Shown one piece after another: positions 1-16,208 of a DNA stretch of 17,135 nt (position 1 is the first letter of the stretch; every line of letters starts with the position of its first letter). The stretch is from Abditibacteriaceae bacterium (GTDB lineage Bacteria; Armatimonadota; Abditibacteriia; Abditibacteriales; Abditibacteriaceae). A model generated the notes under the pieces. It had not been told where the DNA came from. It saw nothing but the letters and a program-made list of their open reading frames with translations, and searched no databases. The stretch spans positions 1 to 17,135 of the forward strand of contig JANPJS010000102.1 of NCBI GenBank assembly GCA_031425655.1, written 5' to 3'. Both the position numbers and the translations under genes were made by a program.

Positions 1-2787
1 CGGAACAAGCCACACCGGGCCAATCAAGCCGGAAGACAACGGTTCCCAGCCAGAAGAATCGAACGGTTTATAAGCGATATTGACGAAAAAGAACTTCTGC
101 CACGGCACTTTGCGCCGATCTAAATCGGCCAATCTGTTCGCCATCAAATTCGTGACTTCGATTTCGAGACGATTGTTTTGCGCCAGCAACGCGGACGGCA
201 CACGCACCGCAAAAGGACGCGAAATCAGCGTGCCCAAATCGTGCGCATTCAAGCGCACTTGCGCGCTATAACGGACTTCTCCCAGATCAATTTGCCACGC
301 CTCGAAATCGCCTTTTGGCCGCTCGAAATTCAACGTATAGCGCGCTGTGCCGGAAAAGGCGCGCAACGCTTCGCCGTCGCTGGGCCAGGTTGTCCAGCTC
401 GAAAGCTGTTCAATTTCAGCTTTTGATGGCAGCGCCGGCCCGCCTTCGACGAATTCGACGCTCCACGCGCCTTTCAACTCTTGCGCTGCGCCGCTGGAAA
501 AGTAATCCCATTGCGGCATTTTCGGCGCGTCCGCAAAAGCGCGCAGCAACAGCGATTGGCCCGCCTCCATTTGCAAATAAACCTGCGTTTTTCCGTCGCG
601 TTGGCGCACAGCGGCGCGGCCAAAATGCCCGCTTAGCGCGTCGTAAATCGCTATGAATTTCGCCGAAATCGCCAGCGGCATCCAGCGTTCGAGGCGTTGG
701 CGCGACTGGTTGGCCAGAAAATAAATGTGTCCGCCGTCCTGCGCGCGACGCATGAATTTCACGCCGTCATCAGTCAGCGTTTCGCGCGGCACTTTGGCGG
801 CTTCGAGTAGCGTTTCGGCGTCCGGCCCGATAAGAAACTGGCCTTTGCCGACTCCGGCGTGCTGCACGCAGGGACTGATTTCGCGGCGCGCTCCCAGCGA
901 ATCCAACGCCGCGTGCAATTGGGCGCGCCGTTTTGCCAAATCGCCCAATCCGGGCACATCCTGTGGCAAGTCGCCGACGACTAAAATCGTGGCGCCGCTT
1001 CGCGCCAATTCAAGCAGGCGCTCCAGCGTTTCCGGCGGCATCAGCGAGGCGCCCGCAACGCACAGCGTTCGATAAGTGCCGCCGCGCGTTTGCAGTGCGC
1101 CGTTTTCAAAACTCACTGCCTTTTTCAATAAACGGTCGGACACGAAATCGAAGCCGTAGCCGCGCTGCCACAGCGTGTGCGCGGATTTCGAGAAACCGGC
1201 CATGCTTTGGTCGAGCCAGGTTTCCGTGTTGTGCATCGTCAGAAATTGCAGCCCGTCTTTGCTGCCTTTTTCCGCTGCCCATAGATCGTAAATCGGCAGG
1301 TAAATCAACACGTCATTGTCGGGCTGGCCGCTTTGCATAAACGACTGACAACGCGCGATGTAACTGTTCAAAGCAGGCAAATCGCGCCAGAAAGTGTTGG
1401 TCGGCGCGAAGTGCGTGGAAGCGTAAAACATCTGGCCGGGCCACGCGGCCTCGGCGGGCGAAAACGTCGAACCGTGAAAAAAGAGATGATTGATTCCGAG
1501 CGTAAAAAGCGCGTCGGCGTTGGCTTTGGCGTGTTCAAGAGGCACGCGACCATGTTCACCAAGCCACGTAAACGATTCGCTCGAACACAAACGCTTGCCC
1601 GCGACGTGCGCCGCTGAAGACGCTATTTTGCAGGCTAAAATCAAGCCTTTTTCAAACGATTGTTTTGGCGTGCCGGGCAACGGCTCCAACCCGGCTAATT
1701 CCAGCCATCCGGCGCCGAAGGTTTCGGTTTCGGGAATGTCGGCCCCAGCGTATAAATCCAAGATATTGGCGGGCGATCCGTGTGCTTGTTCTCGTGCTTT
1801 GGCGCCTTTGTCGTGCGCCCACTTTGCCCAGGGCTGTAAAAATTCTTCGAGTAATAAATCAGAAACGGTTTCACGATAATCTGAGCGCACACGGCGCACA
1901 GTTTCGGCTTCGTCTCCGCCGCGCAGAGCCAATAACTGGCCACGCAAATCGTAACCACGCCGTTGGGCGAATTCGTCGAAAAGCGCGCTTGTCCAGTTGG
2001 CGCCGTAAACCTCGTAAGAATCGTTGAAAAAACAGCGCACCATCGCGCCGGTGGAAAGTTGCGACAGCGGTTTATCGAAGTGTTCTAAATATCGGCGCGT
2101 AGCGACCTGCGAAAAGTGATCGATCACATTGCCCTCGCCGCCCGGCGCGGCGCGCTTAACTTTCTGGCCGGTGCCAGTGGCGAATGCCGCAATAAGCGTC
2201 CAGTGGCCCGAAGTCGCCTGCCATTCGAGATGGCCCGCCGCATCTACTTTAGCGGTAAAGTCCAGCACTTGATCGCCCGAATAGGCCATGAGTGCTAACA
2301 ATCGCGCGTCGGGATTTTCTTTGCTGCGAATGGGAAAATCGAGCGTTGCATACGCCGAAAGGTCGAACTTTTCAAACAATACGCGCGAGGCTGCATCTTC
2401 GTTGGAAACCCACGGCCCGCCCAGCGGCCAGCCGGTGCCGGTAATCATATCCACGCCCAAATCCAGCCGCTTGGCTTCGCGCAGCGTGTGATTTAAGGTT
2501 TCAATCCAGCGAGGGCTGAGATACGGAATATTTTGCGCCTGGGCACCGTCGGCGCCGTAAATCGGGCTGATTTCCACGCCGCCGATGCCGGCTTCTTTGA
2601 ACAATTCGAGATGGCGCGTGATTTCGGATTCGCTAACGGCGCTGCCCATCCACCACCAGCGCGTCCACGGGCGATTTTCGCTGTGCAAAGCCGGCCATGC
2701 GGTTTCAGATTGTTGCGTGTCGTGCATCGGCGCGGCTACGGCGCAAAGAAGGCACGCCACGAGCAAAACAAAGCAGGCTACATCCAT
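1..2787 (-). CDS. GH106-like glycoside hydrolase (alpha-L-rhamnosidase family), 3' end just outside the window
   Basis: Manual translation from ATG at 2787 gives MDVACFVLLVACLLCAVAAP...ENRPWTRWWWMGSAV...AGIGGVEISPIYG...LGVDMITGTGWPLGGPWV (GH106 N-terminal motifs). The same frame near position 1 gives NRLEIEVTNLMANRL...SSGLIGPVWLVP, a typical C-terminus. The track lists no ORF in this frame, consistent with no stop before the edge. SD-like AAGGA lies upstream. Confidence 0.88.
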   Translation of the reverse strand, partial: MDVACFVLLVACLLCAVAAPMHDTQQSETAWPALHSENRPWTRWWWMGSAVSESEITRHLELFKEAGIGGVEISPIYGADGAQAQNIPYLSPRWIETLNHTLREAKRLDLGVDMITGTGWPLGGPWVSNEDAASRVLFEKFDLSAYATLDFPIRSKENPDARLLALMAYSGDQVLDFTAKVDAAGHLEWQATSGHWTLIAAFATGTGQKVKRAAPGGEGNVIDHFSQVATRRYLEHFDKPLSQLSTGAMVRCFFNDSYEVYGANWTSALFDEFAQRRGYDLRGQLLALRGGDEAETVRRVRSDYRETVSDLLLEEFLQPWAKWAHDKGAKAREQAHGSPANILDLYAGADIPETETFGAGWLELAGLEPLPGTPKQSFEKGLILACKIASSAAHVAGKRLCSSESFTWLGEHGRVPLEHAKANADALFTLGINHLFFHGSTFSPAEAAWPGQMFYASTHFAPTNTFWRDLPALNSYIARCQSFMQSGQPDNDVLIYLPIYDLWAAEKGSKDGLQFLTMHNTETWLDQSMAGFSKSAHTLWQRGYGFDFVSDRLLKKAVSFENGALQTRGGTYRTLCVAGASLMPPETLERLLELARSGATILVVGDLPQDVPGLGDLAKRRAQLHAALDSLGARREISPCVQHAGVGKGQFLIGPDAETLLEAAKVPRETLTDDGVKFMRRAQDGGHIYFLANQSRQRLERWMPLAISAKFIAIYDALSGHFGRAAVRQRDGKTQVYLQMEAGQSLLLRAFADAPKMPQWDYFSSGAAQELKGAWSVEFVEGGPALPSKAEIEQLSSWTTWPSDGEALRAFSGTARYTLNFERPKGDFEAWQIDLGEVRYSAQVRLNAHDLGTLISRPFAVRVPSALLAQNNRLEIEVTNLMANRLADLDRRKVPWQKFFFVNIAYKPFDSSGWEPLSSGLIGPVWLVP

Positions 2788-3869
2788 TAATTCCTTGCTG
2801 CGAAGGGCGCGGCTACGCTTTGGCGTTCGACCAATTCGCCGCGAATCGAGACGATGCGCGGCGGCGCTACATCGCCATCTAATCGCTGCAAAAGTAGCTC
2901 GACGACTTTGCGGGCGATGTCTTCGACGGGCTGCGAAACGCAGGTCAGCGGAACGGGGCAGTATTCGGCAATCGGCTGATTATCGTGGCCAATGATGCTC
3001 ACGTCGCCCGGCACTTTCACACCGGCGCGCAGCATTTCGACCATGAAAGCCAACGCGACGTAATCGTTTACGATACAAAGCGCGGTCGGGCGCTTTTTCA
3101 ATTTCAAAAAGGCTTGCGCCATCGCCGCGCCGCCTTTTTCGTAGGTCGGATTTTTGAAAAACCATTCCTCGTGAAACGGCGCTCCGAACTCATCAAGGGC
3201 ACGCCGAAAGCCTTGCAAACGCGCGATTTGAGGCTCGTTTAACTCGTGCGGGTCGCCCGGATGCGACATTCCGATGCCGATGTCGCGGTGTCCGCATTCC
3301 AACAAGCGGCGCGCCGCTAAATACGCGTTATGCTCGCGGTCGAAAATCACCTGGTCGCAATCCAGAGGCAGCGCCACGTCGTAGGCAACCACGATGCCGC
3401 CGCCACGCTGATACGCTTCCAATTCGCGCAACACGGACGCATGAAGCGTGTGCGCCGCGCAAATCACGGCGCGTGGCCACTGCCGGCACAATTGCTTGAT
3501 TTCTGCGGCCTGTAAATCGTCGCGGGCGGCAATTTCGCCGCAAGTGTAAATCGGCACTTCCAGCGAACGCGCATTCAATTCGCGCTGAATAATAAGAATT
3601 TTCTCGGTCGCCAAGCCCACGTCCAGCACGCCGCTGAAGATGTAAACGACATTGTTGCTCACGCCAAAAGCCAAGCGTTGCGCTAAGGGATTCGGCTCGT
3701 AACCGAGTTTCTGCGACATGGCGATTATGCGTTCGCGCGTAGCGACGGCTAAGTTGCCCTTGCCCGAAAGCGCCAGAGAAACCGTGGATTTATGGAGGCC
3801 CAGCGCCCCGGCCACATCGTGAATCGTAACGGGCCGCTTGAGAGCGGAAGTTGGAGTCTCTTTCGTCAT
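2787..3869 (-). CDS. LacI-family transcriptional regulator
   Basis: HTH TIHDVAGALGLHKSTVSLALSG, hinge LGYEPNPLAQRL, and sugar-binding domain motifs PTALCIVND and VPGDVSIIGHDN. Its stop overlaps the GH106 start (TAATG). Confidence 0.96.
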   Translation of the reverse strand: MTKETPTSALKRPVTIHDVAGALGLHKSTVSLALSGKGNLAVATRERIIAMSQKLGYEPNPLAQRLAFGVSNNVVYIFSGVLDVGLATEKILIIQRELNARSLEVPIYTCGEIAARDDLQAAEIKQLCRQWPRAVICAAHTLHASVLRELEAYQRGGGIVVAYDVALPLDCDQVIFDREHNAYLAARRLLECGHRDIGIGMSHPGDPHELNEPQIARLQGFRRALDEFGAPFHEEWFFKNPTYEKGGAAMAQAFLKLKKRPTALCIVNDYVALAFMVEMLRAGVKVPGDVSIIGHDNQPIAEYCPVPLTCVSQPVEDIARKVVELLLQRLDGDVAPPRIVSIRGELVERQSVAAPFAARN

Positions 3870-3958
3870 AATCTTAATTCTTATTCGTCACTAAATTTCC
3901 CGACGGCACTCTATAAAGAAACCGCTTTGAGACAAAAGTTTTGCGAAAACCGCCTTTT

Positions 3959-3975
3959 TGTAAACCGGTTGAACA
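3959..3975. promoter_or_regulatory. Putative LacI-family operator TGTAAACCGGTTGAACA
   Basis: Imperfect palindrome with a perfect AACCGGTT core and central CG, matching the LacI/GalR operator pattern. It lies between the divergent LacI and GH172 genes. Confidence 0.6.
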
Positions 3976-4058
3976 TCAGCATAGCTTGAGATTCGCGCCG
4001 TGAGAGAGTTGCGATGTTCTAAGACACGGATTATTTCGTTATTCCGCTCAAAATCGCC

Positions 4059-6065
4059 ATGAAAAAACTCATTTTGCTCGCCATCGTTTCTTTTGCGACC
4101 ACTTCTCCGGCGCACGCGGCGCCGACGCTCAGCTATGCGCAATTAGTGCAACGCCTGACCGACCTTGAAGGGCTGGCGATTTTACCGGCTCCGGGCGAGA
4201 AGACCGCGCTTTTTTCCAGCTACGACCGCGCCAGCAAATACGATGAAGCGAGCGGCAAATACGTGCGATGGGACGCCAATGGCGATGCCGGCGGCATCAT
4301 TCGCAGCGAAGGCGAATCGCAAGTGCTGGCCGAAATGAGCGGGCCGGGCTGCATCTGGCGCATTTGGGCCGCCACGCCACTGGATAAGCACGTCAAAATC
4401 TACCTCGACGGCGCCACCGAACCCGTCATAAACTTGCCCTTCAAAGATTACTTTAGCGGTAAAGTCGCGCCGTTCAACCATGCGGCGCTGGTTTACACGA
4501 CCGAGGCCAACGGATTCAACAATTTGGTGCCGATTCCGTATCAGAAATCGTGCAAAATCGTGGCGGACAAAGGCTGGGGCAGCTATTATCAGTTCACTTA
4601 CAGCACCTTCGCGCCGGGCACTGAGGTGCCGACTTTCACCCGCGATTTGAGCGAAGCCGACAAAGCTGCGCTCGCGGCGGCAAACGCGGCTTTGCAAAAC
4701 GCTGGCGCCGCTCTTCAAGTAAAGGCCGATGAAACCACGGTGCGAGAAGCGTTTACCTGCGCACCGGGCGAAAGCAAAGCCATCGCGCTGACAGGCCCGC
4801 GCGCCATCACCAATTTTGAAGTCAAAGTGGACGCGGCGGCGCTGGCCGATGCCGCGACAACGCTGCGCGACATCGCTTTGAAAATTCGCTGGGACGGCGA
4901 AAAAACGCCCTCTGTCGCAGTGCCGTTGGGCGATTTTTTCGGTTCGGCGCCGGGCGTTAACTTGTTCAAATCACTGCCCGTCGGCATGACGGCGGACGGC
5001 TTTTATTCGCGTTGGTATATGCCGTTTGGTCAGACGGCAGAAATTCAATTTGTCAACGAAGGCAAAACGCCGATCACGCTGCAAACTACCATTACGCACG
5101 CGCCGCTAACGCGACCGATTGGCGAATTGGGCCGCTTCCACGCCAAATGGCACCGCGATGCGTTTCTGCCGGCGGAACCGGAGCGCAAAATTGACTGGAC
5201 TCTGCTCAAAACGCAGGGCCAAGGCCGCTTTTGCGGCGTGCTGCTGCACGTTTTCAAACCTGTTCCCGGCTGGTGGGGCGAAGGCGACGAAAAGTTCTTC
5301 GTGGACGGCGAAAAGTTTCCTTCGACCATCGGCACCGGCTCGGAAGATTACTTTGGCTACGCGTGGAGCAGCGCCGCGCGCTTCGTGCGGCCATTGCACG
5401 GCCAGACCATCGCCAACAAAGGCCAGATTTCCAATTTTCGCTGGCATACCGCCGACAATGTGCCGTTTCAGCAATCGTTCGAGGGCGCGATGGAAAAGTA
5501 TTTCGGGCCGCAAACTCGTTATGCAGCAACGGTTTACTGGTATTTGTCCGCTGCCGGCGTTGACGCCTACGAACTTGCACCGGCTGCCGAGCGCGACAGT
5601 AATTTCGAGATGCCGGCATCGCCGAGAATCGCCGGCGCCTTTGAAGGTGAAGGGATGCGCGTGCTGGAAAAAAGCGGCGGCAACACTGTCGAGCAAGGCT
5701 TGGACGGCTTCGGCGCAGGCTGGAGCGAAAACTCGCAACTGTGGTGGACGGGCGCCAAAATCGGCGAGAAATTATCGCTGGAATTGCCGGTCAAAGAAGC
5801 CGGAAAATACAAATTGCTGGCGCAACTCACCAAAGCCAAAGATTATGGCATCGTGCAGTTTTATTTGGACGATAAAAAGCTCGGCGATGCCATTGACCTT
5901 TACAACGACAAAGTCATTCCCAGTGGCCCGCTTTCGCTCGGAACGCTCGATTTGACTGCCGGCGCGCATAAAATCACGCTTGAAATCGTGGGCGCCAACG
6001 AAAAATCTGAAAAAGCCTTCATGGTCGGGCTGGATTACGTGAAATTGGAAGCCGTCAAGCCGTAA
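4059..6065 (+). CDS. Secreted DUF2961/GH172-family glycoside hydrolase with a C-terminal CBM-like beta-sandwich
   Basis: Signal peptide MKKLILLAIVSF...AHA. Motifs SSYDR, GPGCIWRIW, WDGEKTPSVAVPLGDFFG, WWGEGDEKFFVDGE and GTGSEDYFGYAW. The C-terminal domain ends LTAGAHKITLEIVG...GLDYVKL. Confidence 0.9.
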   Translation: MKKLILLAIVSFATTSPAHAAPTLSYAQLVQRLTDLEGLAILPAPGEKTALFSSYDRASKYDEASGKYVRWDANGDAGGIIRSEGESQVLAEMSGPGCIWRIWAATPLDKHVKIYLDGATEPVINLPFKDYFSGKVAPFNHAALVYTTEANGFNNLVPIPYQKSCKIVADKGWGSYYQFTYSTFAPGTEVPTFTRDLSEADKAALAAANAALQNAGAALQVKADETTVREAFTCAPGESKAIALTGPRAITNFEVKVDAAALADAATTLRDIALKIRWDGEKTPSVAVPLGDFFGSAPGVNLFKSLPVGMTADGFYSRWYMPFGQTAEIQFVNEGKTPITLQTTITHAPLTRPIGELGRFHAKWHRDAFLPAEPERKIDWTLLKTQGQGRFCGVLLHVFKPVPGWWGEGDEKFFVDGEKFPSTIGTGSEDYFGYAWSSAARFVRPLHGQTIANKGQISNFRWHTADNVPFQQSFEGAMEKYFGPQTRYAATVYWYLSAAGVDAYELAPAAERDSNFEMPASPRIAGAFEGEGMRVLEKSGGNTVEQGLDGFGAGWSENSQLWWTGAKIGEKLSLELPVKEAGKYKLLAQLTKAKDYGIVQFYLDDKKLGDAIDLYNDKVIPSGPLSLGTLDLTAGAHKITLEIVGANEKSEKAFMVGLDYVKLEAVKP

Positions 6066-6087
6066 CCGGGAAATCCCAAAGATTTTT

Positions 6088-6225
6088 ATGAAAACCTTCA
6101 GAAGCGACTTTTTAGTCGCCTGCGTATTTGGCGCGTTGCTGCGTCCGGCGTTGGCGCAACGTGGAAATTGTAATATGTCGCCACCAACGGGCGCGGCATC
6201 GTTTACGGCGACCCGGCGCCGCGCC
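6088..6225 (+). pseudogene. Collapsed remnant of a GH74 (xyloglucanase-like) gene
   Basis: Three pieces in three frames: signal-peptide-like MKTFRSDFLVACVFGALLRPALAQ from 6088, WRNVEIV from 6152 (GH74 mature N-terminal motif), and YVATNGRGIVYGDP from 6174 (GH74 C-terminal motif). Confidence 0.7.
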
Positions 6226-6298
6226 CGTGTCTCTTTGCGCTGATTGCTATTAATATTATGGCAGGGCATTAATTTTGGGCGAAACAGCAACTTGATTT

Positions 6299-7768
6299 AT
6301 GTTCAAAAAGTCGGCGCGGCGCGGTTTGGGGGACGATTTTCACAGCCTGATGGCGTGTGCGGCACGGCTGCGTTTTGCGGGCGATCTCGAAAAGCAGTTC
6401 CGCGACGATTACTTCAATAATTCGCTTGTTCTTTGCCGTGCGGCTATCATTGCTTCGTTTGTAATTTTCATGGCGTTTGGAATCCTTGATCCTTACGCTG
6501 TGCCTTCGGCAACGCCTGCTATCTGGTTCATCCGTTATGGGATAGTTTCTCCCATCGGCTTATCCATTCTGATACTGAGCTTCTTCCCGTTCTTCCGTCA
6601 GATCATGCAGCCGGCTGTCAGCTTAATCGTATTCGTGGTCGGTTTCGGCATTATTTCCATGACGGTAATCGCTCAACCGGGCGAACTGGGCTACTTGTTT
6701 TATCCGATGGGCCTGCTGCTGACGCCCATGATTGGCTACTCTTTTCTCAGGCTCCGCTTTTGGTATGCGACGATTCCCAGCCTGATTCATGTTGTGGCTT
6801 ATGTGTGTTGCGCGATTTTCTATCAGAAGATTCTCAGCGTGCCGCAAGGGGTGCCGATTTTCATCAATAACGCGTTCTTTATATTAGGCGCCAACTTCGC
6901 GGGCATGGCGACTTGCTATTCGCTCGAATTGTATGCGCGTCGCGGTTTCGTCGCCAATTATCTGTTGGAAAAGGAGCGCGCGGGCGAGCAGCGACAACGC
7001 GAGCATACCGAAGCCATGCTGCAAGTTCTTAGTCAGGCCATCGGCGGCGTGGTGCATGATTTGGGAAACCCTTTAACACTGGTGCAAAGCGGCGCGCAAA
7101 CGTTGGAACTCTTCATCCAAAACGGCGATACCGATGCGGAAGATTTCAAGGAATTTCTCGGCATCATCACCGACGGCGCCCAAATGCTGGACTATCTCCG
7201 CTTGTCGCTCATGGAGCAAGTGCGCGTTTTAGACGACAAGCCGATTCCTCTACAATGCACTCCCACCTCGATTCGCCACATTGTCGAAGCGGGCGCTCGC
7301 TACCAGCAACCGCGCTTCAGCAGCGGTCGCACCGTAGCGCTGCATGGCGATGATGTAGAAATCGCGGTTGATGAAAAGAAGATGATTACCGTCTTGATGA
7401 ACCTGATCGGAAACGCTCTCAAATACAGCGATGGCGAAGTGCGCATAGTTTGGCGCACCACGCCGCAGCATCTGCTGATTGCCGTTTTAGATCAAGGTTT
7501 GGCTGGCAAAGGCATCTCACAGACTCAAGCGGAGCAACTCTTTGTCGCGTTTGGCCGGCTCGACGCTCATGCTCAAGTAGAAGGAACGGGTCTTGGCCTG
7601 TTCTCGGTGCGTAAGATCGCCGAAGCCCACGGCGGCGAAGTCTTTATCGAAGGACACGGCGACCATAACGCGCCGCCGCTGAACTTTAGCAGCGCGCAGG
7701 GCACTTATCCTTCGATGTTGCACGAAGAATTTCGCACCGCTTTTGTCGTCGTTTGTGCGTGTTGTTAG
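6299..7768 (+). CDS. Membrane-bound sensor histidine kinase (multi-TM + HisKA + HATPase_c), orphan
   Basis: About six hydrophobic segments, H-box VVHDLGNPL, N-box NLIGNALKYS, G1 DQGLAGKGI, F-box LFVAF and G2 GTGLGL. Confidence 0.92.
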   Translation: MFKKSARRGLGDDFHSLMACAARLRFAGDLEKQFRDDYFNNSLVLCRAAIIASFVIFMAFGILDPYAVPSATPAIWFIRYGIVSPIGLSILILSFFPFFRQIMQPAVSLIVFVVGFGIISMTVIAQPGELGYLFYPMGLLLTPMIGYSFLRLRFWYATIPSLIHVVAYVCCAIFYQKILSVPQGVPIFINNAFFILGANFAGMATCYSLELYARRGFVANYLLEKERAGEQRQREHTEAMLQVLSQAIGGVVHDLGNPLTLVQSGAQTLELFIQNGDTDAEDFKEFLGIITDGAQMLDYLRLSLMEQVRVLDDKPIPLQCTPTSIRHIVEAGARYQQPRFSSGRTVALHGDDVEIAVDEKKMITVLMNLIGNALKYSDGEVRIVWRTTPQHLLIAVLDQGLAGKGISQTQAEQLFVAFGRLDAHAQVEGTGLGLFSVRKIAEAHGGEVFIEGHGDHNAPPLNFSSAQGTYPSMLHEEFRTAFVVVCACC

Positions 7769-7780
7769 TCGTTAAACCGG

Positions 7781-7955
7781 CAGGGCAAACGCATAAGAAA
7801 AGGAATAGCCGCGAAAACGCGAAAACGGCACAAAAAACAGAAAGCCCGAACTGAATAGCGGACTCCGTCAACACACTCCACGCGCGGGGCAGACCTCTCT
7901 TTTGTGTCTTTTGCGCGTTTTCGCGGCCCTTCCTTTTTCCTATGCGTTTGCCCTG
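7781..7955. mobile_element. 175-bp MITE with CAGGGC...GCCCTG (ISAs1-like) termini
   Basis: Perfect 15-bp TIR CAGGGCAAACGCATA / TATGCGTTTGCCCTG that extends imperfectly to about 55-60 bp. Flanked by GTTAAACCGG (7771-7780) and GTTAAGCCGC (7956-7965), 8/10 identical and TSD-like. No transposase. Confidence 0.75.
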
Positions 7956-7956
7956 G

Positions 7957-8034
7957 TTAAGCCGCTTCGATGGGCACCGGCGCGTGAAAGCCGAAATAGC
8001 CGCGCTCTTTGATGACTTGCGCCACTTCGGGCGG
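7957..8034 (-). pseudogene. Displaced duplicate 3' end of the 9219-10646 gene (direct repeat copy A)
   Basis: 7961-8034 matches 9226-9299 at 70/74 nt and encodes PPEVAQVIKERGYFGFHAPVPIEAA followed by its own TAA. Confidence 0.93.
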
Positions 8035-8052
8035 GGAGCTTAATCGTTGGGG
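8030..8052 (+). other. Right half of an attC-like site (GGCGGGGAGCTTAATC-GTTGGGG)
   Basis: Resembles the right end of the 8639-8724 element (GGTAGGCAAGCTTGGTC-GTTTTGA) and ends in a GTTRRR core at 8046. Confidence 0.45.
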
Positions 8053-8193
8053 GCGCTGCGCGAGACTTGGCTGCAAGGCTAAATCATGTGGTAACCACAG
8101 CCACAAACATAATTTCGTGGGAACTAATTTTGCACATGAATTGAAAGCAAGTGTTGAAATTACGCTTGCCAAAATTCACTCAGGAGGTGCAAG

Positions 8194-8556
8194 ATGACAG
8201 CAATGGTGAAGAAGAGCTTTGATAGCCCAGAGGAAACCCGGCCCATGAACAAAGGTAAGGCAGAGGTTGTGAGTCTGGGTGATATCAAGGCCATGCGCGT
8301 GACTTTTGAGCCGGGCTGGCGCTGGTCGGAGTGTGTCAAACCGATTGTGGGCACCGACAGTTGCCAGGTAGCTCACCTTCTCCATGTGGTCTCAGGACGG
8401 ATGGCGGTCAGGATGGACGATGGGTCAGAAACAGAGTTCGGGCCAGGTGATGTTGGACACATTCCACCTGGGCACGACGCTTGGATAGTGGGGGATGAGC
8501 CTTTCGTCTCCATTGACTTCCAGGGCGGTGCGATCTACGCCGCGCCACGAAGCTAA
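8194..8556 (+). CDS. Cupin domain-containing protein
   Basis: Motifs FEPGWRWSECVKP, CQVAHLLHVVSGRM and GPGDVGHIPPGHDAWIVGDEP. Strong SD AGGAGG at 8181-8186. Confidence 0.93.
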   Translation: MTAMVKKSFDSPEETRPMNKGKAEVVSLGDIKAMRVTFEPGWRWSECVKPIVGTDSCQVAHLLHVVSGRMAVRMDDGSETEFGPGDVGHIPPGHDAWIVGDEPFVSIDFQGGAIYAAPRS

Positions 8557-8574
8557 CTGACCGCTAAAGCTGCA

Positions 8575-8612
8575 ACACGATGGGCGCGACCTTGATTTCG
8601 CGCCCATCGTGT
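8575..8612. terminator. Perfect 15-bp hairpin after the cupin gene (terminator or mRNA-stabilising stem)
   Basis: ACACGATGGGCGCGA, 8-nt loop, TCGCGCCCATCGTGT. There is no U-tract, so a terminator role is uncertain. Confidence 0.5.
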
Positions 8613-8638
8613 GGCGAAAGTAGCGCATCGAAACAGCG

Positions 8639-8724
8639 GCCCGACAAGACACTGAACCCGACCACCGCTATCTTCGTGCGTTATTCCTCGCCGCCCTTGC
8701 GGTAGGCAAGCTTGGTCGTTTTGA
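8639..8724 (+). other. Degenerate integron attC-like recombination site
   Basis: GCCCGAC (RYYYAAC with 1 mismatch)-AAGAC-ACTGAAC at the left end and GCAAGCT-TGGTC-GTTTTGA at the right end, with internal ACCGC/GCGGT pairing. It is 86 bp long and lies between two co-oriented small ORFs. Confidence 0.55.
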
Positions 8725-8764
8725 CATAGAACGTCTCTTAACCTCTTGCGGTAGAATATCAAAC

Positions 8765-9190
8765 ATGATGAAGCAGACGAAACAAGGGTTAAAAGTGGCT
8801 CTGCTTGTTGTGTTTGGCGCCTCGCTCGCTGTCTTGCTTCTTTTTATAGTAAAGTTTCGGTCGCACACGCCAAATATGGCTATTTCCTCATTAGCTGCGG
8901 CTTTACAGAGTAATGACCAGCCACAAATCAAACGCCTCAGTTCTCCGAGTGGTTTATTATCACTCCAAACGATGATCTCACGTTACGGGCAGAGGCATTT
9001 GGGTAATTATTTGGCAGCACACAAATCAATCCGGCCAAATCCACACGTTTTCATTACTACCGTTGTTTTTATGTTGGATGATTCAAAAACACCACCAGTT
9101 ACAGCTTTCTTCAAATGGACATGGGATGGCTGGAAACTTACCAGCATCAACAGCACCCCGACGTTCCAACTGCGCTCCGATGAAAGGTAG
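8765..9190 (+). CDS. Hypothetical protein with an N-terminal membrane anchor (cassette-like ORF)
   Basis: 141-aa ORF with one TM segment (VALLVVFGASLAVLLLFIV) and a C-terminal FKWTWDGWKLTSI. AT-richer than the flanks. TAGAAT ends 7 nt before the ATG. Confidence 0.7.
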   Translation: MMKQTKQGLKVALLVVFGASLAVLLLFIVKFRSHTPNMAISSLAAALQSNDQPQIKRLSSPSGLLSLQTMISRYGQRHLGNYLAAHKSIRPNPHVFITTVVFMLDDSKTPPVTAFFKWTWDGWKLTSINSTPTFQLRSDER

Positions 9191-9218
9191 CACCTGACTA
9201 TCAAACTACGCTCGTTTC

Positions 9219-10646
9219 TCACACCGCCGCTTCGACCGGCACCGGCGCGTGGAAGCCGAAATAGCCGCGCTCTTTGATGACTTGGGCCACTTCGGGCGGC
9301 ACCATGCTTTCCCAGGCCGGGTCGCCGTCGCGGACTTTGTCCAGCACTTCGCGCGAGTAAATATGCAGGTAATCGCGATTGAAAAAGTCCAGCGATTCGA
9401 TGAAGTCGTTTTCGACAAGGTGACCGAAAAGGCGCTGCAAATGCGGCGCGACTTTCAGCTTTTGCACGTTGGTAAATTGTCCGGTTTGCGCGTTTTTCTC
9501 CGGGTAAACGAATAATTTCAAGTCGCTCTTGAAAAGGCGTCCGAACGATTCGAGAATGCCGCCTTCCAAGTGCTCGTAATACTTTTCTTCAAACAAATCG
9601 CGCAGGCTGGGAATGCCCATCGTGATGCCAATCGGCTTGCGTGAAAAGCGCGCGATATAAGCGGCCAAGCGGTAGTATTCAAAGTAATCGGAGATCAAAA
9701 CGGTGTGGCCCGTCGCGGCGAGCAGTTCGGCGCGGGCCAGAAAATCGGCGTGATCCACTTCGCCCGACGACAGCAGATTACGCATCGTAATTTCGGCTAA
9801 AACCACGACTTCGGTTTCGCCCTGCAATTGCGGCGAGGCCATGAATTGCGCGCGGGCGCATTCCAGCATATCGAGATTGACTAATGTGACGGGGCGAAAG
9901 CTGCCGCGCTCGACTAAAACCGGCTTTTTGTAAAGCACTTCCGAAGGCTGCAAAATCTCGCCGTCGGGCGCGAACATCGCGGCGTCCGAGAGGCCAAGCT
10001 GCACTAATTTCATGCTCGTCAGGCGGTGGTCAACATTGGAAAAGGCCGGCCCGATGAATTTAATCATGTCCACTTCGACGCGCTCCGTAGACAGGTTGTC
10101 GAGGAGGGATTCCATCAGCACATCGGGGTTTTCGTGCAGAAAAAACGCGCCGTGAATCAGATTCACGCCCAAAATTCCCAGCGCGTGCTGCTGCGCGATG
10201 TGTTCTTTGTCGAGCATTCGCACATGAATCAGAATCTCGATTGGCAGGGCGCGCGGCGCGGTTTGATATTTGACGCCCATCCAGCCGTGGCACTCGTTGG
10301 TGCCTTTGAAACCGCGCGTGGCGACCGTATCGGCGAACACGAAAAATTCGGTGTCGCCGCCGCGTTTGGCTTCCAATCGTTCCAACATCAGGCCATATTC
10401 GTAGTCGAGCATGGTCTGCAAACGCTGACGCGAAACGTAGCGCGGACACGGGCCATAAATGGCATCGCTGACCGTCATGTCGTAAGCCGACATACTTTTG
10501 GCGATGGTGCCCGAAGCGCCGCCGGCCTGAAAAAACCAGCGCACCACTTCCTGCCCGGCGCCGATTTCGGCAAACGTGCCGTATTTGCGATGCGATAAAT
10601 TAATTGAAAGCGCCTTTTGCGCGGTGCCGATGCGTTCACTGTCCAT
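9219..10646 (-). CDS. Conserved nucleotidyltransferase-superfamily protein (nicotinate-nucleotide adenylyltransferase-like)
   Basis: Conserved N-terminus YGTFAEIGAGQEVVRWFF..GGASGTIAKSMSAYDM, RGSFRPVTLVNLDM resembling the GSFxP motif of HIGH-type nucleotidyltransferases, and C-terminal WESMVPPEVAQVIKERGYFG. Soluble protein; precise activity uncertain. Confidence 0.75.
   Translation of the reverse strand: MDSERIGTAQKALSINLSHRKYGTFAEIGAGQEVVRWFFQAGGASGTIAKSMSAYDMTVSDAIYGPCPRYVSRQRLQTMLDYEYGLMLERLEAKRGGDTEFFVFADTVATRGFKGTNECHGWMGVKYQTAPRALPIEILIHVRMLDKEHIAQQHALGILGVNLIHGAFFLHENPDVLMESLLDNLSTERVEVDMIKFIGPAFSNVDHRLTSMKLVQLGLSDAAMFAPDGEILQPSEVLYKKPVLVERGSFRPVTLVNLDMLECARAQFMASPQLQGETEVVVLAEITMRNLLSSGEVDHADFLARAELLAATGHTVLISDYFEYYRLAAYIARFSRKPIGITMGIPSLRDLFEEKYYEHLEGGILESFGRLFKSDLKLFVYPEKNAQTGQFTNVQKLKVAPHLQRLFGHLVENDFIESLDFFNRDYLHIYSREVLDKVRDGDPAWESMVPPEVAQVIKERGYFGFHAPVPVEAAV
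9226..9299. repeat. 74-bp direct repeat copy B, within the 3' end of the intact gene
   Basis: 70/74 identical to 7961-8034. Confidence 0.95.
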
Positions 10647-10693
10647 AGCGAAGACTCCACCATTTAACTTATCAAGAGTCGGCAGCGTTTGGG

Positions 10694-11482
10694 TTAACGG
10701 CGTGTTACGAAATGCTCGAAAACGTCCTTGCCCACCGCCAGATAAAGGCCCGACAGCAGCGTGAAGCCAAGCGCCAGCATTTCAAAGCGTTCCTGATCAA
10801 TGAATTTCAGCAGCCAGCGCCCGGCGAATACCGAAACCATCGCAATCGGCGCGAAGATGGCGTCTATTTTCAGCGATTGCGGGTTAATCAGGCCCAAATC
10901 GTAGCTGAACGGCACTTTGAAGAGGTTTAGCGTCAGAAAATACCATGCCGACGTGCCGATAAACTCCATTTTCGGCAGCCCCATCGCCAAAAGATAAAGA
11001 ATCATCACCGGCCCGGCGGCGTTGGCGATCATCGTCGTGAAACCGGCAGCCACGCCGGTTAATGCCACGAGCCAGAAGTTCTGAGGCACCAGTTCGGCGG
11101 CTTTTTCCGGCTGTCCTTTGGTTTTTTCGCGCCGCCAGAACTGCAAGGCCACAAGTCCGATGAGAATCAGGCCCATCATGTGCCCGACTTGCCGCGTATC
11201 CAGCACTTTGAAGGCGTAATAACCAAGAAATACGCCCAACGCCGCGAAGGGAAACAAGCGGATAATATGCGCCCAAACCGCGTGGCGGCGAAAGAGCGAA
11301 ACCGAAACTACGTCGGCGCAAATCAGGATGATAAGAACCAGCCCGGTAGATTCTTTGGGCGGAAAAACCAGAGCGAAAAGCGGCGCCGCCACGATGCCCA
11401 GTCCGCTGATGCCGCCTTTCGACAACCCAACGCAAAGCGCGCCCAAAATGCCCCAGAGAATCTGCCAGTTGCTTAAGTGCAT
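10694..11482 (-). CDS. Sulfite exporter TauE/SafE family permease
   Basis: 262-aa multi-TM protein with GLSKGGISGLG and GFTTMIANAAGP motifs. Confidence 0.92.
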   Translation of the reverse strand: MHLSNWQILWGILGALCVGLSKGGISGLGIVAAPLFALVFPPKESTGLVLIILICADVVSVSLFRRHAVWAHIIRLFPFAALGVFLGYYAFKVLDTRQVGHMMGLILIGLVALQFWRREKTKGQPEKAAELVPQNFWLVALTGVAAGFTTMIANAAGPVMILYLLAMGLPKMEFIGTSAWYFLTLNLFKVPFSYDLGLINPQSLKIDAIFAPIAMVSVFAGRWLLKFIDQERFEMLALGFTLLSGLYLAVGKDVFEHFVTRR

Positions 11483-11491
11483 GATGAAAAG

Positions 11492-11571
11492 AGAATACAG
11501 AAGTCAGGAGTCGGAAGCCAGAAAATTGTGCCGGAATAGTTCTGGCTTCCGATTTCTGACTTCTGTATTCT
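11492..11571. repeat. Inverted repeat of heptamer-like units (32-bp arms, 16-nt loop)
   Basis: AGAATACAGAAGTCAGGAGTCGGAAGCCAGAA (11492-11523) matches the reverse complement of 11540-11571 at 30/32. Confidence 0.92.
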
Positions 11572-11577
11572 TTAAGC

Positions 11578-12330
11578 ATGGCTTCTTGTGAACTGCATTA
11601 TTTCAGTCCGGCGCTGGGCAAACAAACGGTGGCGAACGTGCTTTTGCCGCAAAGCGATCATCCCGGCCCGTTTCCCGTGCTTTATTTGCTGCACGGTTTG
11701 TCCGACGATTACACGGCGTGGATGCGCAACACCAGCATCGCGCGCTACGTTTCGGGCCTGCCTCTCATCGTGGTGATGCCGGACGGCGGGCGCGGCTTTT
11801 ACTGTGATGCCGCGCGCGGCTACGCTTACGAAACCGCCATCGTGACCGATTTAGTGAACTACGTAGACAAGATGTTTCCGACTATCGCCGAACGCAGAGG
11901 CCGCGCCTTAGCCGGGCTTTCGATGGGCGGTTACGGCGCTCTGAAACTGGCGCTCAGCCACCCGGATATGTTTTGTTCGACGGTTAGTCATTCGGGCGCG
12001 CCGGATTTCGCGCACGTTCATCCCGACCCCAATCACGACGAATTCGGACTGATTATCGGCGATAATTCCGTCGGAGGGCCAAACGATCTTTACGGCCTCG
12101 CCGACCGCTTTGCCGGCGGCGAACTCGGCCCGTGGCCGCAAGTGCGGATTGACTGCGGAACCGAAGACTTTCTGCTCGAAATGAACCGCAATTTTCACGC
12201 GCACCTGCAAAGCCTGAATTTGCCGCACGAATACGCAGAATTTCCCGGCGCGCACGAATGGGGTTACTGGGACGAACACATCAAAGACGCCTTAGCTTTT
12301 CACGCCCGGCATCTGGGAATTGAAGCGTAA
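11578..12330 (+). CDS. Alpha/beta-hydrolase esterase (CE1 / S-formylglutathione hydrolase-like family)
   Basis: Motifs PVLYLLHGLSDD, nucleophile GLSMGG, DCGTEDFL and GAHEWGYW. Confidence 0.92.
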   Translation: MASCELHYFSPALGKQTVANVLLPQSDHPGPFPVLYLLHGLSDDYTAWMRNTSIARYVSGLPLIVVMPDGGRGFYCDAARGYAYETAIVTDLVNYVDKMFPTIAERRGRALAGLSMGGYGALKLALSHPDMFCSTVSHSGAPDFAHVHPDPNHDEFGLIIGDNSVGGPNDLYGLADRFAGGELGPWPQVRIDCGTEDFLLEMNRNFHAHLQSLNLPHEYAEFPGAHEWGYWDEHIKDALAFHARHLGIEA

Positions 12331-12333
12331 GTA

Positions 12334-12474
12334 GGCGGGAGGCGGGAAGCGGGAGGCAGGAGGCAGGAGGTCGGAAAACAGCGCAAGGCAAAAAGCAACC
12401 GCAGCATTATTTAGGTGCGGTTGCTTTTGCGTTGTTCCTGCCGTCTGCCGTCTGCCGTCCGCCGTCCGCCGTCC
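12334..12474. repeat. Heptamer tandem arrays flanking a 13-bp hairpin; probable bidirectional terminator
   Basis: (GGCRGGA) about x6, then AAAAGCAACCGCA (12391-12403) / TGCGGTTGCTTTT (12416-12428), then (TCYGCCG) about x5. It lies between convergent genes. Confidence 0.8.
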
Positions 12475-12478
12475 AGCT

Positions 12479-12778
12479 TCAGCGTTTCGTGCGATCTGGA
12501 GGCAGCGGAGTGACTTTGAGCTTCATTTCATCGGGCGGCGGCTTCTTTTTTAAGCCGTTTTTGGCCAGCGACATTAGAAAATCGCCGATTAAATACAACA
12601 CGATCACTAAAATCAGGCCGCGCAGCATTTGAAAAATGAGCGGTTCCGGCCACAAAATCATGCGCTGAAAAGAAGCGAGCCACGCTGTGGGGCCAACGAG
12701 GTGGCCGGAGAGAAAATCCCACGCGAAATACAAACCCATGTAAATCGCAATGCCCACGAATAAAAAGACGATTAGCAC
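12479..12778 (-). CDS. Hypothetical small membrane protein (2 TM)
   Basis: GTG start preceded by a GGAGG SD, two hydrophobic segments and a charged tail. Confidence 0.7.
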   Translation of the reverse strand: MLIVFLFVGIAIYMGLYFAWDFLSGHLVGPTAWLASFQRMILWPEPLIFQMLRGLILVIVLYLIGDFLMSLAKNGLKKKPPPDEMKLKVTPLPPDRTKR

Positions 12779-12914
12779 GATGCGCCTCCCCGATTGGTTA
12801 ACATAACTTTGCGCTGTTTATTATTGCAAAAACCGCGCAGGCCCAGAATAGCAATTTGCGTGACGATTGTCGTTTGCGCCTTTTTTGCCATTAAAGCTGT
12901 GTTTTGAAGTTGTT

Positions 12915-14348
12915 ATGCCACAAAATATCACTCTGCTTTCAAAAACCCCGCCGCGTGTTCGCGAAGCCGCCGCGCGTCCGCGCCTCGCGGAAACTTTCGC
13001 CTCGCAGGCGCCGACTTTCGCCTTGTATACGCTCGGTTGCAAGGTCAATCAATACGATTCGCACCAAATCGCGCGCACTTTGGTCGGACGCGGCTTTCGG
13101 CGCGTGGAATTCCGCGAAGTCGCCGATTTATACGTGATTGACACCTGCACCGTGACCGCTGAAGCCGATAAAAAATCGCGCAAAGCCGCCGCGCGTGCCC
13201 AACGCAACAACCCCGATGCCGTCATCGCCGTGACCGGCTGCGCCGCCGCGCGCGATGCCACGCAGTTTCAAAAAGCCGCGCCCGGCGCTTTGGTTTTGGA
13301 CAATTCTCGCAAGCTCGATTTGCCCGATCTGGCGCTGGATGCGCTGCTCGAAAAGCGCAACTGGGCCGAAAACTATGCATTGTGGCGCGAGCAAACCGGC
13401 AGCGAACCGGTGCCTTCGGCCACGCGCGAACGCGCGGTTTTGAAAATTCAGGACGGCTGCAATCACAAATGCGCGTTTTGCATCATTCCCAGTGTGCGCG
13501 GCGCTTCAGTCGTGCGAAACCGCGAAGTTTTGATGGCCGAGGGCCGCGCTTTTGTGCATGAAGGCGCGCGGGAAATCACCATCACCGGCGTTTCGATGGG
13601 CGACTGGGGACGGCGGAACCCCCAAGCCCCCTTGGTAAGGGGGTTGGGGGTTCCGCCTGTGGTAGCGGGGCGCAATGCCGAATTATGCGCGCTGATTCGT
13701 GCCGTCGCTACGATTGAAGGCTTGGAGCGCGTGCGCGTTTCATCGCTTGACCCGGCAGATGTGGACGAGGAATTTCTGCAAACCGTAGCGCACACGCCCA
13801 AAGTTTGCCCGCATATTCATCTCGCTTTGCAAGCGGGCGGCAACGCGACGTTGAGACGAATGCGCCGTCGCTACACCTCCGAGCTATTTTTAAAATGGGC
13901 GCGGCGCTGGCGCGAAATTCGGCCCGACGGCGGCCTGACTACCGACATCATCGTCGGCTTTCCCGGCGAAAGCGAAGACGATTTCGCCCAATCGCTGCGC
14001 GTGGCGCAGGAAGCCCGCTTTTCCGCGATTCATGTTTTCCCGTTTTCGCCGCGCGGCGGCACCTTCGCTGAGACGCTCGATGAGCGCGTTCCACCCGCGA
14101 TTCAAGATCGCCGCGTGGATGAATTGCTGAATTTGGCGCGCGATTTGTCGGCTGATTTCGGGTCACAGTTCATCGGCCAAACGCTGCCAATTCTCGTGGA
14201 AAGCGTGACAAACAGCGTTGCCGAAGGCATGACCGAAAATTATCTCAAAGCGCGCGTGACCAACCTGCCGCCAAATGTCTCAACCGGCGATGTGATTGAT
14301 TTTGTGCCGCGCGCATGGACGGACGGAGTTTTGGAAGGAGCAGCGTGA
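12915..14348 (+). CDS. mtaB: tRNA t6A37 methylthiotransferase MtaB (radical SAM)
   Basis: TLGCKVNQYDS, DTCTVT, VTGC, LKIQDGCNHKCAFCIIPSVRG (CxxxCxxC), TTDIIVGFPGE, HVFPFSPRGGT and a TRAM-like C-terminus. ATG 12915 is preferred over the track's TTG 12867. Confidence 0.88.
   Translation: MPQNITLLSKTPPRVREAAARPRLAETFASQAPTFALYTLGCKVNQYDSHQIARTLVGRGFRRVEFREVADLYVIDTCTVTAEADKKSRKAAARAQRNNPDAVIAVTGCAAARDATQFQKAAPGALVLDNSRKLDLPDLALDALLEKRNWAENYALWREQTGSEPVPSATRERAVLKIQDGCNHKCAFCIIPSVRGASVVRNREVLMAEGRAFVHEGAREITITGVSMGDWGRRNPQAPLVRGLGVPPVVAGRNAELCALIRAVATIEGLERVRVSSLDPADVDEEFLQTVAHTPKVCPHIHLALQAGGNATLRRMRRRYTSELFLKWARRWREIRPDGGLTTDIIVGFPGESEDDFAQSLRVAQEARFSAIHVFPFSPRGGTFAETLDERVPPAIQDRRVDELLNLARDLSADFGSQFIGQTLPILVESVTNSVAEGMTENYLKARVTNLPPNVSTGDVIDFVPRAWTDGVLEGAA
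13612..13657. repeat. Palindromic element inside the mtaB reading frame
   Basis: GGCGGAACCCCCAA-G-CCCCCTT-GGT-AAGGGGG-TTGGGGGTTCCGCC forms 14-bp and 7-bp perfect stems with one bulge and a 3-nt loop. Confidence 0.85.
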
Positions 14349-14353
14349 TTCTT

Positions 14354-14533
14354 ATGCGTGCTTTACGCGCCTTTCTCATCTTTTGGCTCATAAGTGGAGT
14401 AGTAGCCCTCGCAGCAGCAATTAGCCTTGCGCCGAAAACATCATTGGATACTATTGGATTGGTGGTTTGGTTATGGCTTCTCATATTTGCCGCAGGAGTA
14501 GTGATTGCGTTCATTAGTGAAAAGCGCCGCTAA
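14354..14533 (+). CDS. Small hypothetical membrane protein (2 TM, 59 aa)
   Basis: MRALRAFLIFWLISGVVALAAAISL...LVVWLWLLIFAAGVVIAFISEKRR, with an AAGGAG SD at the end of mtaB. GTG 14345 is an alternative start. Confidence 0.6.
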   Translation: MRALRAFLIFWLISGVVALAAAISLAPKTSLDTIGLVVWLWLLIFAAGVVIAFISEKRR

Positions 14534-14534
14534 C

Positions 14535-15155
14535 TCATCGCACCGGATAGCGGAAGTGGCCGATGATTTTCCACGAAGTCAGCGCGTTTTCTTCGCGGCA
14601 GCCGCCTAAGTTGTGAATCACGAAAGGCATTCCATTCGCGTCTTTTTTGTCGGACACGATGCCGGTGTGTTTCAACCCGGCGGGGTTTAAATCCCAGCAC
14701 ACGATGTCGCCCGGCTGCCATTGCGCCAGCGTTTTTGGTCTTACTTCCTGCGTCAATTCCTTGCCAAAACGACGAAAAAACACCATCTGATTGGGCACAC
14801 GACGATGGTCAATGTTGGAATCGGGCCGCTTCAGTCCCCATTTTTTGCGGCTCGGATAAAGCGCGAAATGGCGTGTCATGTCTTCGTGCATCAGTTTTTG
14901 TAAGTCGCGGCCACCAGCCCGCAGCGCGCGAACCACAACATCGGTGCAAACGCCGGTGGTTTTCGCCACATCGCCGCCCGGATAAGTCAATTTCACATAA
15001 GCGGGGTCGTAACCGATGCCAATTTGCGCCCGCGCGCCGGCCACGATTTTCGCTTGCGTGGAACGCGCCTGCGCTTTCACAGGCGCGGTTTGCGAAGTCG
15101 CATGGCAGCCGGCCAACGTGAGCAAAGCGAACAAAATAAAGCGTTTCTGTTTCAC
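14535..15155 (-). CDS. DUF1287 family lipoprotein
   Basis: Lipobox LAGC and motifs YDPAYVKLTYPGGDV, GVCTDVVVRALR, DSNIDHRRVPN, WQPGDIV and HTGIVSD. Confidence 0.9.
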   Translation of the reverse strand: MKQKRFILFALLTLAGCHATSQTAPVKAQARSTQAKIVAGARAQIGIGYDPAYVKLTYPGGDVAKTTGVCTDVVVRALRAGGRDLQKLMHEDMTRHFALYPSRKKWGLKRPDSNIDHRRVPNQMVFFRRFGKELTQEVRPKTLAQWQPGDIVCWDLNPAGLKHTGIVSDKKDANGMPFVIHNLGGCREENALTSWKIIGHFRYPVR

Positions 15156-15157
15156 AA

Positions 15158-16015
15158 TTAAATCCCGACGCGCGAACGATATTCCTTCTGGCCTTTGACG
15201 TTTACGCGCACGCGATACAGCGTGCCGTCAGCGGTTTGCGAATCGTCGCTGCCGCCGGCTGTGGTGATATACAGCGTTTGCAAATCGTCGTCGCCGAACA
15301 CGACTGAAGACACGCGTTCGACCGGCATTTCAATTTTCTCGATGAGTTTTCCGTCCGTATCAAAGTGAAAAATGCCCCAGCCGCCCCAGCGCGCCGACCA
15401 GATTTCGCCGTTTGAGTCAACGGCCATGCCGTCTGGGCTGCCGCCATCGGAGGGCGTCACGATGAAGGCGCGGCGATTGGAAAGCGCGCCGGTTTGCGTG
15501 TCGTGGTCGAAGGCGTAAATCGTTTTGTGTGAGGTGTCCGTCCAGTAAAACGTGCCGCCGTCGGGCGAATAGCCCATGCCGTTCGAGCAAGCGGTTCCGT
15601 CCCACAGTTGCGAAATCGTGCCGTCCGGTAGGACTTTGAACAAGCCGCCGTTCATCTTTTCTTTGTCGCCCATCGTGCCCGCCAAAACGCCGCCGAACGG
15701 GTCGGCCATAACGTCGTTGAAGCGGCCCGTTTGCGGAAAGACATCGCGCGCTAAAGTTTGCACGCTACCGTCGTCGCTCAGGATGCCGAAGGTGTTTTCT
15801 CCGAAGATTAAGAGCCGTCCGTCGTCCTGAAGCGTGAAGCCGCCGACAGTCGGGCCTTCGTAGAATTTTTCCCATTCCAGCGTGTCTACGTTAAGCCGGA
15901 AAAGTCGCCCGTTGGGAATATCCTCCCAGTAGATCAAACGCTTTTGCGCATCCCAGAGCGGGTTTTCGCCCGTATTGCAATGTGCGTTGGCCAAAGGTTC
16001 GATTTCGTATTTCAT
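15158..16015 (-). CDS. SMP-30/gluconolactonase/LRE family protein
   Basis: Start MKYEIEPLAN at 16015 (285 aa). Motifs TGENPLWD, RFNDVMADP, SNGMGYSPDG, PDGMAVDSNGEIW and FGDDDLQTLYITTA. Confidence 0.93.
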   Translation of the reverse strand: MKYEIEPLANAHCNTGENPLWDAQKRLIYWEDIPNGRLFRLNVDTLEWEKFYEGPTVGGFTLQDDGRLLIFGENTFGILSDDGSVQTLARDVFPQTGRFNDVMADPFGGVLAGTMGDKEKMNGGLFKVLPDGTISQLWDGTACSNGMGYSPDGGTFYWTDTSHKTIYAFDHDTQTGALSNRRAFIVTPSDGGSPDGMAVDSNGEIWSARWGGWGIFHFDTDGKLIEKIEMPVERVSSVVFGDDDLQTLYITTAGGSDDSQTADGTLYRVRVNVKGQKEYRSRVGI

Positions 16016-16021
16016 GTTCAA

Positions 16022-16027
16022 ATTATA
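16022..16027 (-). promoter_or_regulatory. -10 element TATAAT 6 nt upstream of the SMP-30 start codon (leaderless-type promoter)
   Basis: The minus strand reads gcTATAATttgaacATG, with no SD. Confidence 0.6.
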
Positions 16028-16079
16028 GCGGGCAAAGGCCCCGCGATGGGCTAAAATGTGCGGAGCATTTTTGTTTATT

Positions 16080-16179: not shown

Positions 16180-16208
16180 GATGAATCCCATGTTCACAGG
16201 AGAGTAGC

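Follow-up and report, generated by a model that had tools for sequence, protein, structure and literature searches.

In the genome of an Abditibacteriaceae bacterium (Armatimonadota; assembly GCA_031425655.1), a gene encoding a 475-aa protein ends in 25 codons that recur, with a stop codon of their own, 1265 nt away. The DNA between both copies appears, from its sequence, to be a piece of an integron cassette array: half an attC recombination site, a cupin cassette, an attC site, a second cassette and another half attC. The locus lies on contig JANPJS010000102.1, whose positions 1 to 17,135 make up the window analyzed here and supply the coordinates used below. The explanation that we consider reasonably probable is that homologous recombination with the allele of a related strain, together with one microhomology join, brought in an old two-cassette piece whose two ends both lie inside attC. 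The elements of the locus are the following:

7957-8034, minus strand: copy A, the displaced gene tail with its own TAA stop (repeat search and translation)
8025-8034, plus strand: junction microhomology, CTTCGGGCGG against CTTCCGGCGG, 9/10 positions (in another register, 5 nt, GGCGG)
8025-8077, plus strand: attC0, a right half attC site with a cassette leader typical of the genome; GTT at 8046-8048
8194-8556, plus strand: open reading frame (ORF) of cassette 1, a 120-aa cupin (PF05899, above cut-off)
8572-8615, no strand assigned: putative terminator-like hairpin after the cupin gene (DNA fold z -8.2)
8639-8726, plus strand: attC1, full-length and decayed (28.6 bits, E = 5.7e-6 genome-wide)
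8765-9190, plus strand: ORF of cassette 2, 141 aa, GC content 0.45, no family match
9176-9225, plus strand: attC2, the decayed left half of the terminal attC, with GAT at 9179-9181 in place of the AAC triplet
9219-9299, minus strand: copy B, the in-frame tail, whose final Val codon and TGA come from the attC left half, bottom strand
9219-10646, minus strand: host gene, a predicted ORF of 475 aa with an automatic family name only

The direct repeat (7961-8034 and 9226-9299) covers 74 nt, of which 70/74 are identical (95%), with a perfect core of 32 nt; no other repeat family in the window comes near it in length. Copy B supplies the last 25 codons of the host gene in frame and ends in TGA (9219-9221), while copy A holds the same 25 codons and ends in TAA (7957-7959), the respective translations being ...VPVEAAV* and ...VPIEAA*. 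The tails differ at four position pairs (7971/9236, 7972/9237, 7987/9252 and 8020/9285), which amount to three synonymous codon differences and one Val/Ile exchange. The original prediction, made from the sequence alone, had described this repeat, its spacing, the separate stop, the kinds of difference and the AAV-TGA and AA-TAA ends; repeat search, sequence comparison and translation confirm all of them. A search of the genome contigs returned no other full-length occurrence of the tail.

The insert comprises 1191 nt (8035-9225) with two plus-strand ORFs, and its cassettes face the host gene head-on; the original prediction had not recognized integron cargo in it. attC0 matches the attC profile with 18.5 bits (E = 1.9e-5 in the window, 0.0068 genome-wide), and its part inside the insert has on its own an empirical p of 0.002-0.009. 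attC1 keeps its GTT (8718-8720) and has lost both L-box motifs and the AAC triplet, which is present in 37/40 reference attC sites; the AAC and GTT triplets and paired L boxes that characterize functional sites are therefore not found together in it. Its identity to the nearest genomic attC is 84%, against a median of 93%. Compared with the alignment of 40 genomic attC sites, attC2 has an empirical p of 0.03-0.04. A homologue of the cassette 2 product (P0002, 70% identical) reads through into a peptide encoded by the attC consensus, and the attC2 remnant sits in the exact codon register of the attC read through by this homologue. The folding z-scores of the attC strands are uninformative, since intact integron sites gave z values of 0.3 and -0.5. 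Cupin homologues occur in 2/26 family genomes (52-54% identity, loci L143 and L144), both of the same genus, as ordinary genes with no attC alongside. The cassette 2 ORF has five homologues at 70-77% identity, none in the 26 family genomes, and a GTDB scan gave one weak partial match with no attC. Neither cassette gene has a source copy elsewhere in the genome.

The attC sites of the insert belong to a family that is widespread in this genome. When the genome was searched with the insert, the stretch 8632-8720 recurred on many contigs at regular spacing, and the attC profile has 78 matches on 37 contigs, 40 of them full-length and strong. The sole integron integrase (IntI) of the genome, above the TIGR02249 cut-off, is encoded on contig C103 with four attC sites beside it; positions 4883-9879 of that contig form a complete integron, with IntI on the minus strand, a first cassette starting from a GTT near 5991 and four intact attC sites ahead of the contig end. 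Sites reduced to their left half are the last in 6/15 multi-site arrays (contigs C16, C186, C280, C283, C314 and C317) and make up 1/36 of the non-terminal sites (Fisher p = 0.0016); such a disabled terminal attC may let arrays persist. The cargo of our locus is a fragment of an attC cluster without an integron integrase (CALIN): its ORFs lie between same-strand attC sites with no intI nearby, although it has one full decayed attC and two halves instead of the at least two complete sites by which these clusters are defined.

The junctions indicate how this fragment was joined to the gene. At 8025-8034, copy A terminates in CTTCGGGCGG, which agrees at 9/10 positions with the attC motif CTTCCGGCGG; this motif is found, exactly or as a one-letter variant, in 29/40 attC sites. 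When random positions 45-130 nt before a stop were drawn and a match was sought within four positions, such a match arose in 620/200000 trials (0.3%). The sequence of the donor at this junction was deduced from the attC consensus, and the illegitimate junction can therefore be read, within a microhomology of 5-10 nt; this falls in the range of the 3-10 bp described for homology-facilitated illegitimate recombination (HFIR). At the other end, a comparable short motif marks the place where the last codons of the gene adjoin the attC remnant, and copy B takes its new Val codon and its stop from attC sequence. Ahead of the first GTT, 11 nt of attC (8035-8045) abut the displaced tail. Neither junction is located at the GTT, where IntI cuts, and therefore IntI did not make the present ends.

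Comparable scars are frequent in the genome. From 313 local direct repeats, 190 multi-copy ones were dropped and the remaining 123 were compared with our own ORF calls (4089 genes). Among them, 36/123 copy the 3' end of a gene that reads inwards to the insert, and these involve 33 genes; randomly shifted repeats gave a mean of 7.3 such cases and a maximum of 16. Outward-facing 3'-end cases were observed twice against 8.0 expected, and repeats involving 5' ends 24 times against 12.5 expected. The scar repeats have a median length of 71 nt, a median identity of 91% and a median insert of about 1.06 kb. In 28/36 scars the repeat ends at most 10 nt from the stop, which is where homology between donor and recipient would end. 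Pooled over the scars, among which three genes are represented by two pairs each, 150 codon differences are synonymous, 86 are non-synonymous and 5 change a codon to a stop; they correspond to a ratio of non-synonymous to synonymous change (pN/pS) of 0.23, compared with at least 0.5 expected if one of two initially identical copies had decayed neutrally (p = 2e-8). This coding-type divergence supports allele replacement at the scars. A second scar (L055, C24:13963-15013), at the end of a phosphomannomutase-like gene, consists of a cassette that starts from GTT without a preceding attC, one ORF and a left-half attC joined to a displaced tail (89 nt, 82%). On contigs C45, C108 and C267 there are genes behind which their own end stands in two displaced copies, as in repeated additions at one gene. 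Junction windows of the scars hold an attC of at least 4 bits in 5/246 cases, against 63/20000 random windows. Only the C24 scar and the present locus break inside attC, those on C63 and C141 meeting cassettes at or after the GTT; such scars are too few, and partly ascertained, to claim a preference of junctions for attC.

We infer the following order of events. In a donor lineage, cassettes of the organism's integron family would have settled behind the gene in convergent orientation. Through a deletion at a shared short motif, the last attC would have lost its right half and the gene its old stop; from then on the gene would have stopped inside the attC remnant, and the attC sites would have decayed. 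Donor DNA carrying the gene end and the cassettes would later have entered a relative, probably by transformation. There, an illegitimate join would have linked the attC0 motif with the similar motif that lies 74 nt ahead of the gene end; the donor DNA would also have recombined by homology within the gene, and the resident end would have been displaced by 1265 nt. A trimmed circle integrated by a single crossover and a linear fragment with an upstream crossover both fit the data. As a prediction, IntI could no longer mobilize the resulting unit, and recombination of one tail with the other would be the only way to remove it.

Several lines of evidence are consistent with this order. The cassettes are probably older than the duplication, because attC1 has diverged to 84% and attC2 is barely detectable, yet the tails are 95% alike. 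Transformation is known to move cassettes by homologous recombination (PMC3410848). In E. coli, trimmed and recircularized donor DNA integrating by one crossover produced duplications of 109-950 bp in 56/60 clones (PMC3240628). Homology combined with illegitimate joining, which the original prediction had mentioned as its last alternative, is the best fit in view of the attC-broken junctions and the microhomology. Its proposal that both tails evolved as coding sequence, and hence that one allele replaced another, finds support in the pooled pN/pS; the present locus alone does not carry it, as its own synonymous bias (3/4 differences) is not significant (p 0.08-0.24).

That lack of significance is one of several points that weigh against our scenario. 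Five of the pooled codon differences are stops. Taken alone, attC2 gives a weak signal, with 3.6 bits and an E of 0.97 in the window, and stays below 4 bits with a second model. Neither an empty allele nor a donor allele was found among the genomes compared, the closest of which share about 81-85% protein identity and have unrelated downstream DNA. In favor of the scenario, a 151-nt contig from another sample (X4, depth 2.1), with six differences over 9212-9362 and the copy-A letter at 9285, hints at a second strain that has the copy-B ending; against this, the contig is a single low-depth record. The competence genes comEC, dprA and comM are above cut-off in the genome and also match in 8-10/14 control genomes, which is no proof of competence, and no Ku that might help to circularize DNA was found in the genome. 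For a RecA crossover, a 74-nt repeat whose perfect core measures 32 nt is short. Finally, the classical form of HFIR yields deletions and not duplications, its junctions having 3-10 bp of microhomology accompanied by deletions (PMC3240628).

An unlikely alternative is an event of replication inside a single genome: at an attC-like motif the fork would have exchanged the gene for a cassette array as its template, copied two cassettes and returned about 60-74 nt earlier at a second such motif. The same low probability covers a variant of it, in which an excised two-cassette circle opened inside its attC; in either form, the tails would have been identical at first and diverged later. The fact that both tail ends resemble the same attC motif, with left and right half sites meeting near it, would be explained in this manner, and drift at a later time is compatible with four differences of which three are synonymous (p 0.24). 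Nevertheless, decay has gone much further in the attC sites than in the tails, the genome holds no source copy of the cassette genes, the pooled scars diverged as coding alleles and terminal left-half attC sites are common in the genome without any duplication.

The original prediction had suggested that the gene may be an attachment site (attB) or hotspot, and the insert a trans-mobilized or eroded element, with a signature like that of prophage e14 at E. coli icd. A gene end serving as attB for an integrase-bearing or trans-mobilized element, of which the insert would be the eroded remnant, is clearly improbable. The resemblance to e14 is real in part: in both cases an intact gene has a replaced end, a displaced pseudo-end stands behind the insert in the same outward geometry and one residue change is conservative (PMC6379469), and the genome has five tyrosine recombinases besides IntI. 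However, none of the six is encoded on this contig, and no integrase lies in or beside the insert, which also lacks a recombinase-sized ORF, as had been claimed (its longest stop-to-stop frame has 188 codons); a trans-mobilized island is thus not supported. The difference from e14 extends to the missing prophage, to the junction inside attC, to the absence of non-cassette element DNA between tail and attC halves and to the lack of recurrence at the gene in relatives. Homologous loci (n = 99; 19 from relatives, 80 from metagenomes) include the C-terminus in 94 cases and at least 1 kb downstream in 76; a duplicated tail was seen in 0/76 of the latter, none of the loci being conspecific. An attC of at least 10 bits has no match in 102 homologous loci. 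Genus-level relatives have a single tail followed by unrelated DNA, and the comparison with relatives, suggested as a check, revealed no empty site. Since no homologous locus is conspecific, a species-restricted site may be compatible with these results. The scar is nevertheless found at 33 unrelated genes, whose tail starts share no significant core motif (best 6-mer p 0.16, best 7-mer p 0.19) and show a marginal summed information (p 0.04). The replacement 3' end of the e14-icd signature is therefore retained, with the displaced copy, whereas the integrase and the re-use of the site are not.

The direct placement of the cassettes here by IntI, at an attG or another secondary site, with an unrelated tail duplication, is very improbable. 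IntI is present in the genome and inserts cassettes at GWT sites of genomes (bioRxiv 10.1101/2022.09.11.507474), and such an insertion may explain how the cassettes first arrived at the gene in the donor lineage. Yet IntI joins at the GTT of attC, which predicts a junction at the cassette GTT and no attC upstream of the first cassette, and the 11 nt of attC before the first GTT run up to the tail. IntI is not known to make a 74-nt duplication.

The structure comes from a metagenome assembly of 327 contigs, and the data examined at the locus are contigs only (Logan); run X1 is possibly the source sample and so not independent. Contigs of this run tile the locus over 6500-8017 (depth 14), 7990-9282 (11.3) and 9255-10574 (10.9). 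The middle one (1293 nt) carries both junctions and pieces of the tails with the letters specific to each copy, and at 9285 the X1 contigs show a single allele, which excludes a simple two-allele bubble. The 32-nt perfect core interrupts the public contigs, with no phasing across the repeat and no piece spanning both tails, and a linear structure and an empty chromosome with an equally abundant circle both fit the X1 contigs. Regarding the misassembly envisaged in the original prediction, both junctions are thus present at chromosome depth with no second allele, whereas the spanning of both tails by one contig was not obtained. An artifact, whether two concatenated strain alleles or a free 1265-bp circle beside an empty chromosome, is the least credible explanation of all, as strain bubbles would not yield orientation-biased scars ending at stops. 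Runs X2 and X3 have next to no cover of the insert, and a joint 8034-9541 in run X4 was not used, since its basis is a stretch of 26 nt with 85% likeness. Over the host gene (window 10490-11000), the X1 contig has 12 other letters, the listed ones near the 5' end of the gene, and continues into 365 nt unlike the window; cover of 10728-11000 is near zero. This public contig may be a chimera within a highly conserved stretch, or its record may have been filtered.

The homologous addition of a two-cassette piece, as favored here, has parallels in several known systems. In our analysis, the locus works like an insertion with long target duplication and like the displacement of tips described for rhs genes; it resembles e14-icd and fails the integrase and recurrence tests. 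Insertions with long target duplication (PMC2853133) share with it an integrase-free insert below 20 kb and a unique, slightly diverged repeat above 30 bp; a Haemophilus influenzae example has a 44/46 repeat and overlapping gene 3' ends. The cargo differs, being here integron cassettes (a cupin gene and an ORF) and not restriction-modification genes, and so does the repeat, which here corresponds to 25 codons of a coding tail with no empty allele for comparison. Single-crossover insertion-duplication and HFIR (PMC3240628) likewise combine one homologous and one illegitimate join, a duplicated gene end and a short microhomology. That system is an engineered conjugation assay in E. coli with duplications of 109-950 bp, and true HFIR deletes resident DNA; none is seen to be lost here, in a locus with no empty allele to compare. 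In rhs genes (PMC2935791), incoming DNA also provides a new 3' end by homologous recombination and the resident end is pushed downstream, but here the peptide of the new tip is nearly unchanged, so that the gain consists of passenger cassettes, and the scar is present at 33 unrelated genes. CALIN and SALIN have the same arrangement of same-strand attC sites between single ORFs far from IntI (PMC4889954; bioRxiv 10.1101/2022.09.11.507474), while here one full decayed attC and two halves are found, both ends are inside attC and not at the GTT crossover, and a gene-tail duplication flanks the cassettes. Among four listed origins of CALIN, the nearest to this locus is rearrangement (PMC4889954). 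Folded attC sites are also readily deleted by slippage (Loot et al., bioRxiv 10.1101/2022.09.11.507474). Among the titles covered, to which most subscription journals do not belong, none describes tail duplications broken inside attC.

The host gene, present in 22/40 relatives, encodes a protein that may belong to a family automatically named 'nicotinate-nucleotide adenylyltransferase family' or 'putative TonB-dependent receptor' (atlas clusters, score 0.98); it has no Pfam or NCBIfam match and no PDB relative at a useful E-value. Its homologue in genome G003 (C4:174688-176123) carries frameshifts or stops in its 5' part, and a TauE gene lies upstream of the homologue in 3/3 same-genus genomes. 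Behind the displaced tail, on the host side, stands a long intergenic repeat of a dispersed family:

7781-7955, no strand assigned: imperfect palindrome of 175 nt, with a histidine-kinase gene on one side and the displaced tail on the other

Related palindromes occur on contigs C246, C291, C259, C193 and C256. The membrane histidine kinase (6299-7768) has no adjoining response regulator within the window and does not adjoin the host gene in the loci of relatives examined. A 32-nt inverted repeat (94%) at 11492-11571, between an esterase-like gene and the TauE gene, seems from the ORF translations to recur near 12860-12890. A scan of 7700-9350 for sigma-70 promoters and a search of Rfam gave no match.

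The classes of mechanism invoked here are known, and the locus is a clear worked example and not a new element; what it adds is its attC-broken anatomy. In most gene-end scars the donor sequence past the break is hidden, while here it can be read from the attC consensus, and the junction supports homology and microhomology, not a site-specific integrase, behind dozens of scars in this genome. Cassettes would leave the integron or move outside it without IntI and end up immobilized. As a rather doubtful generalization, additive recombination anchored in gene ends may be an integrase-independent way of spreading cassette arrays, in which attC hairpins on incoming single-stranded DNA would be preferred points of breaking and joining and the cassettes would arrive locked by a half attC. 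If true, it would add a route to the four listed origins of CALIN.

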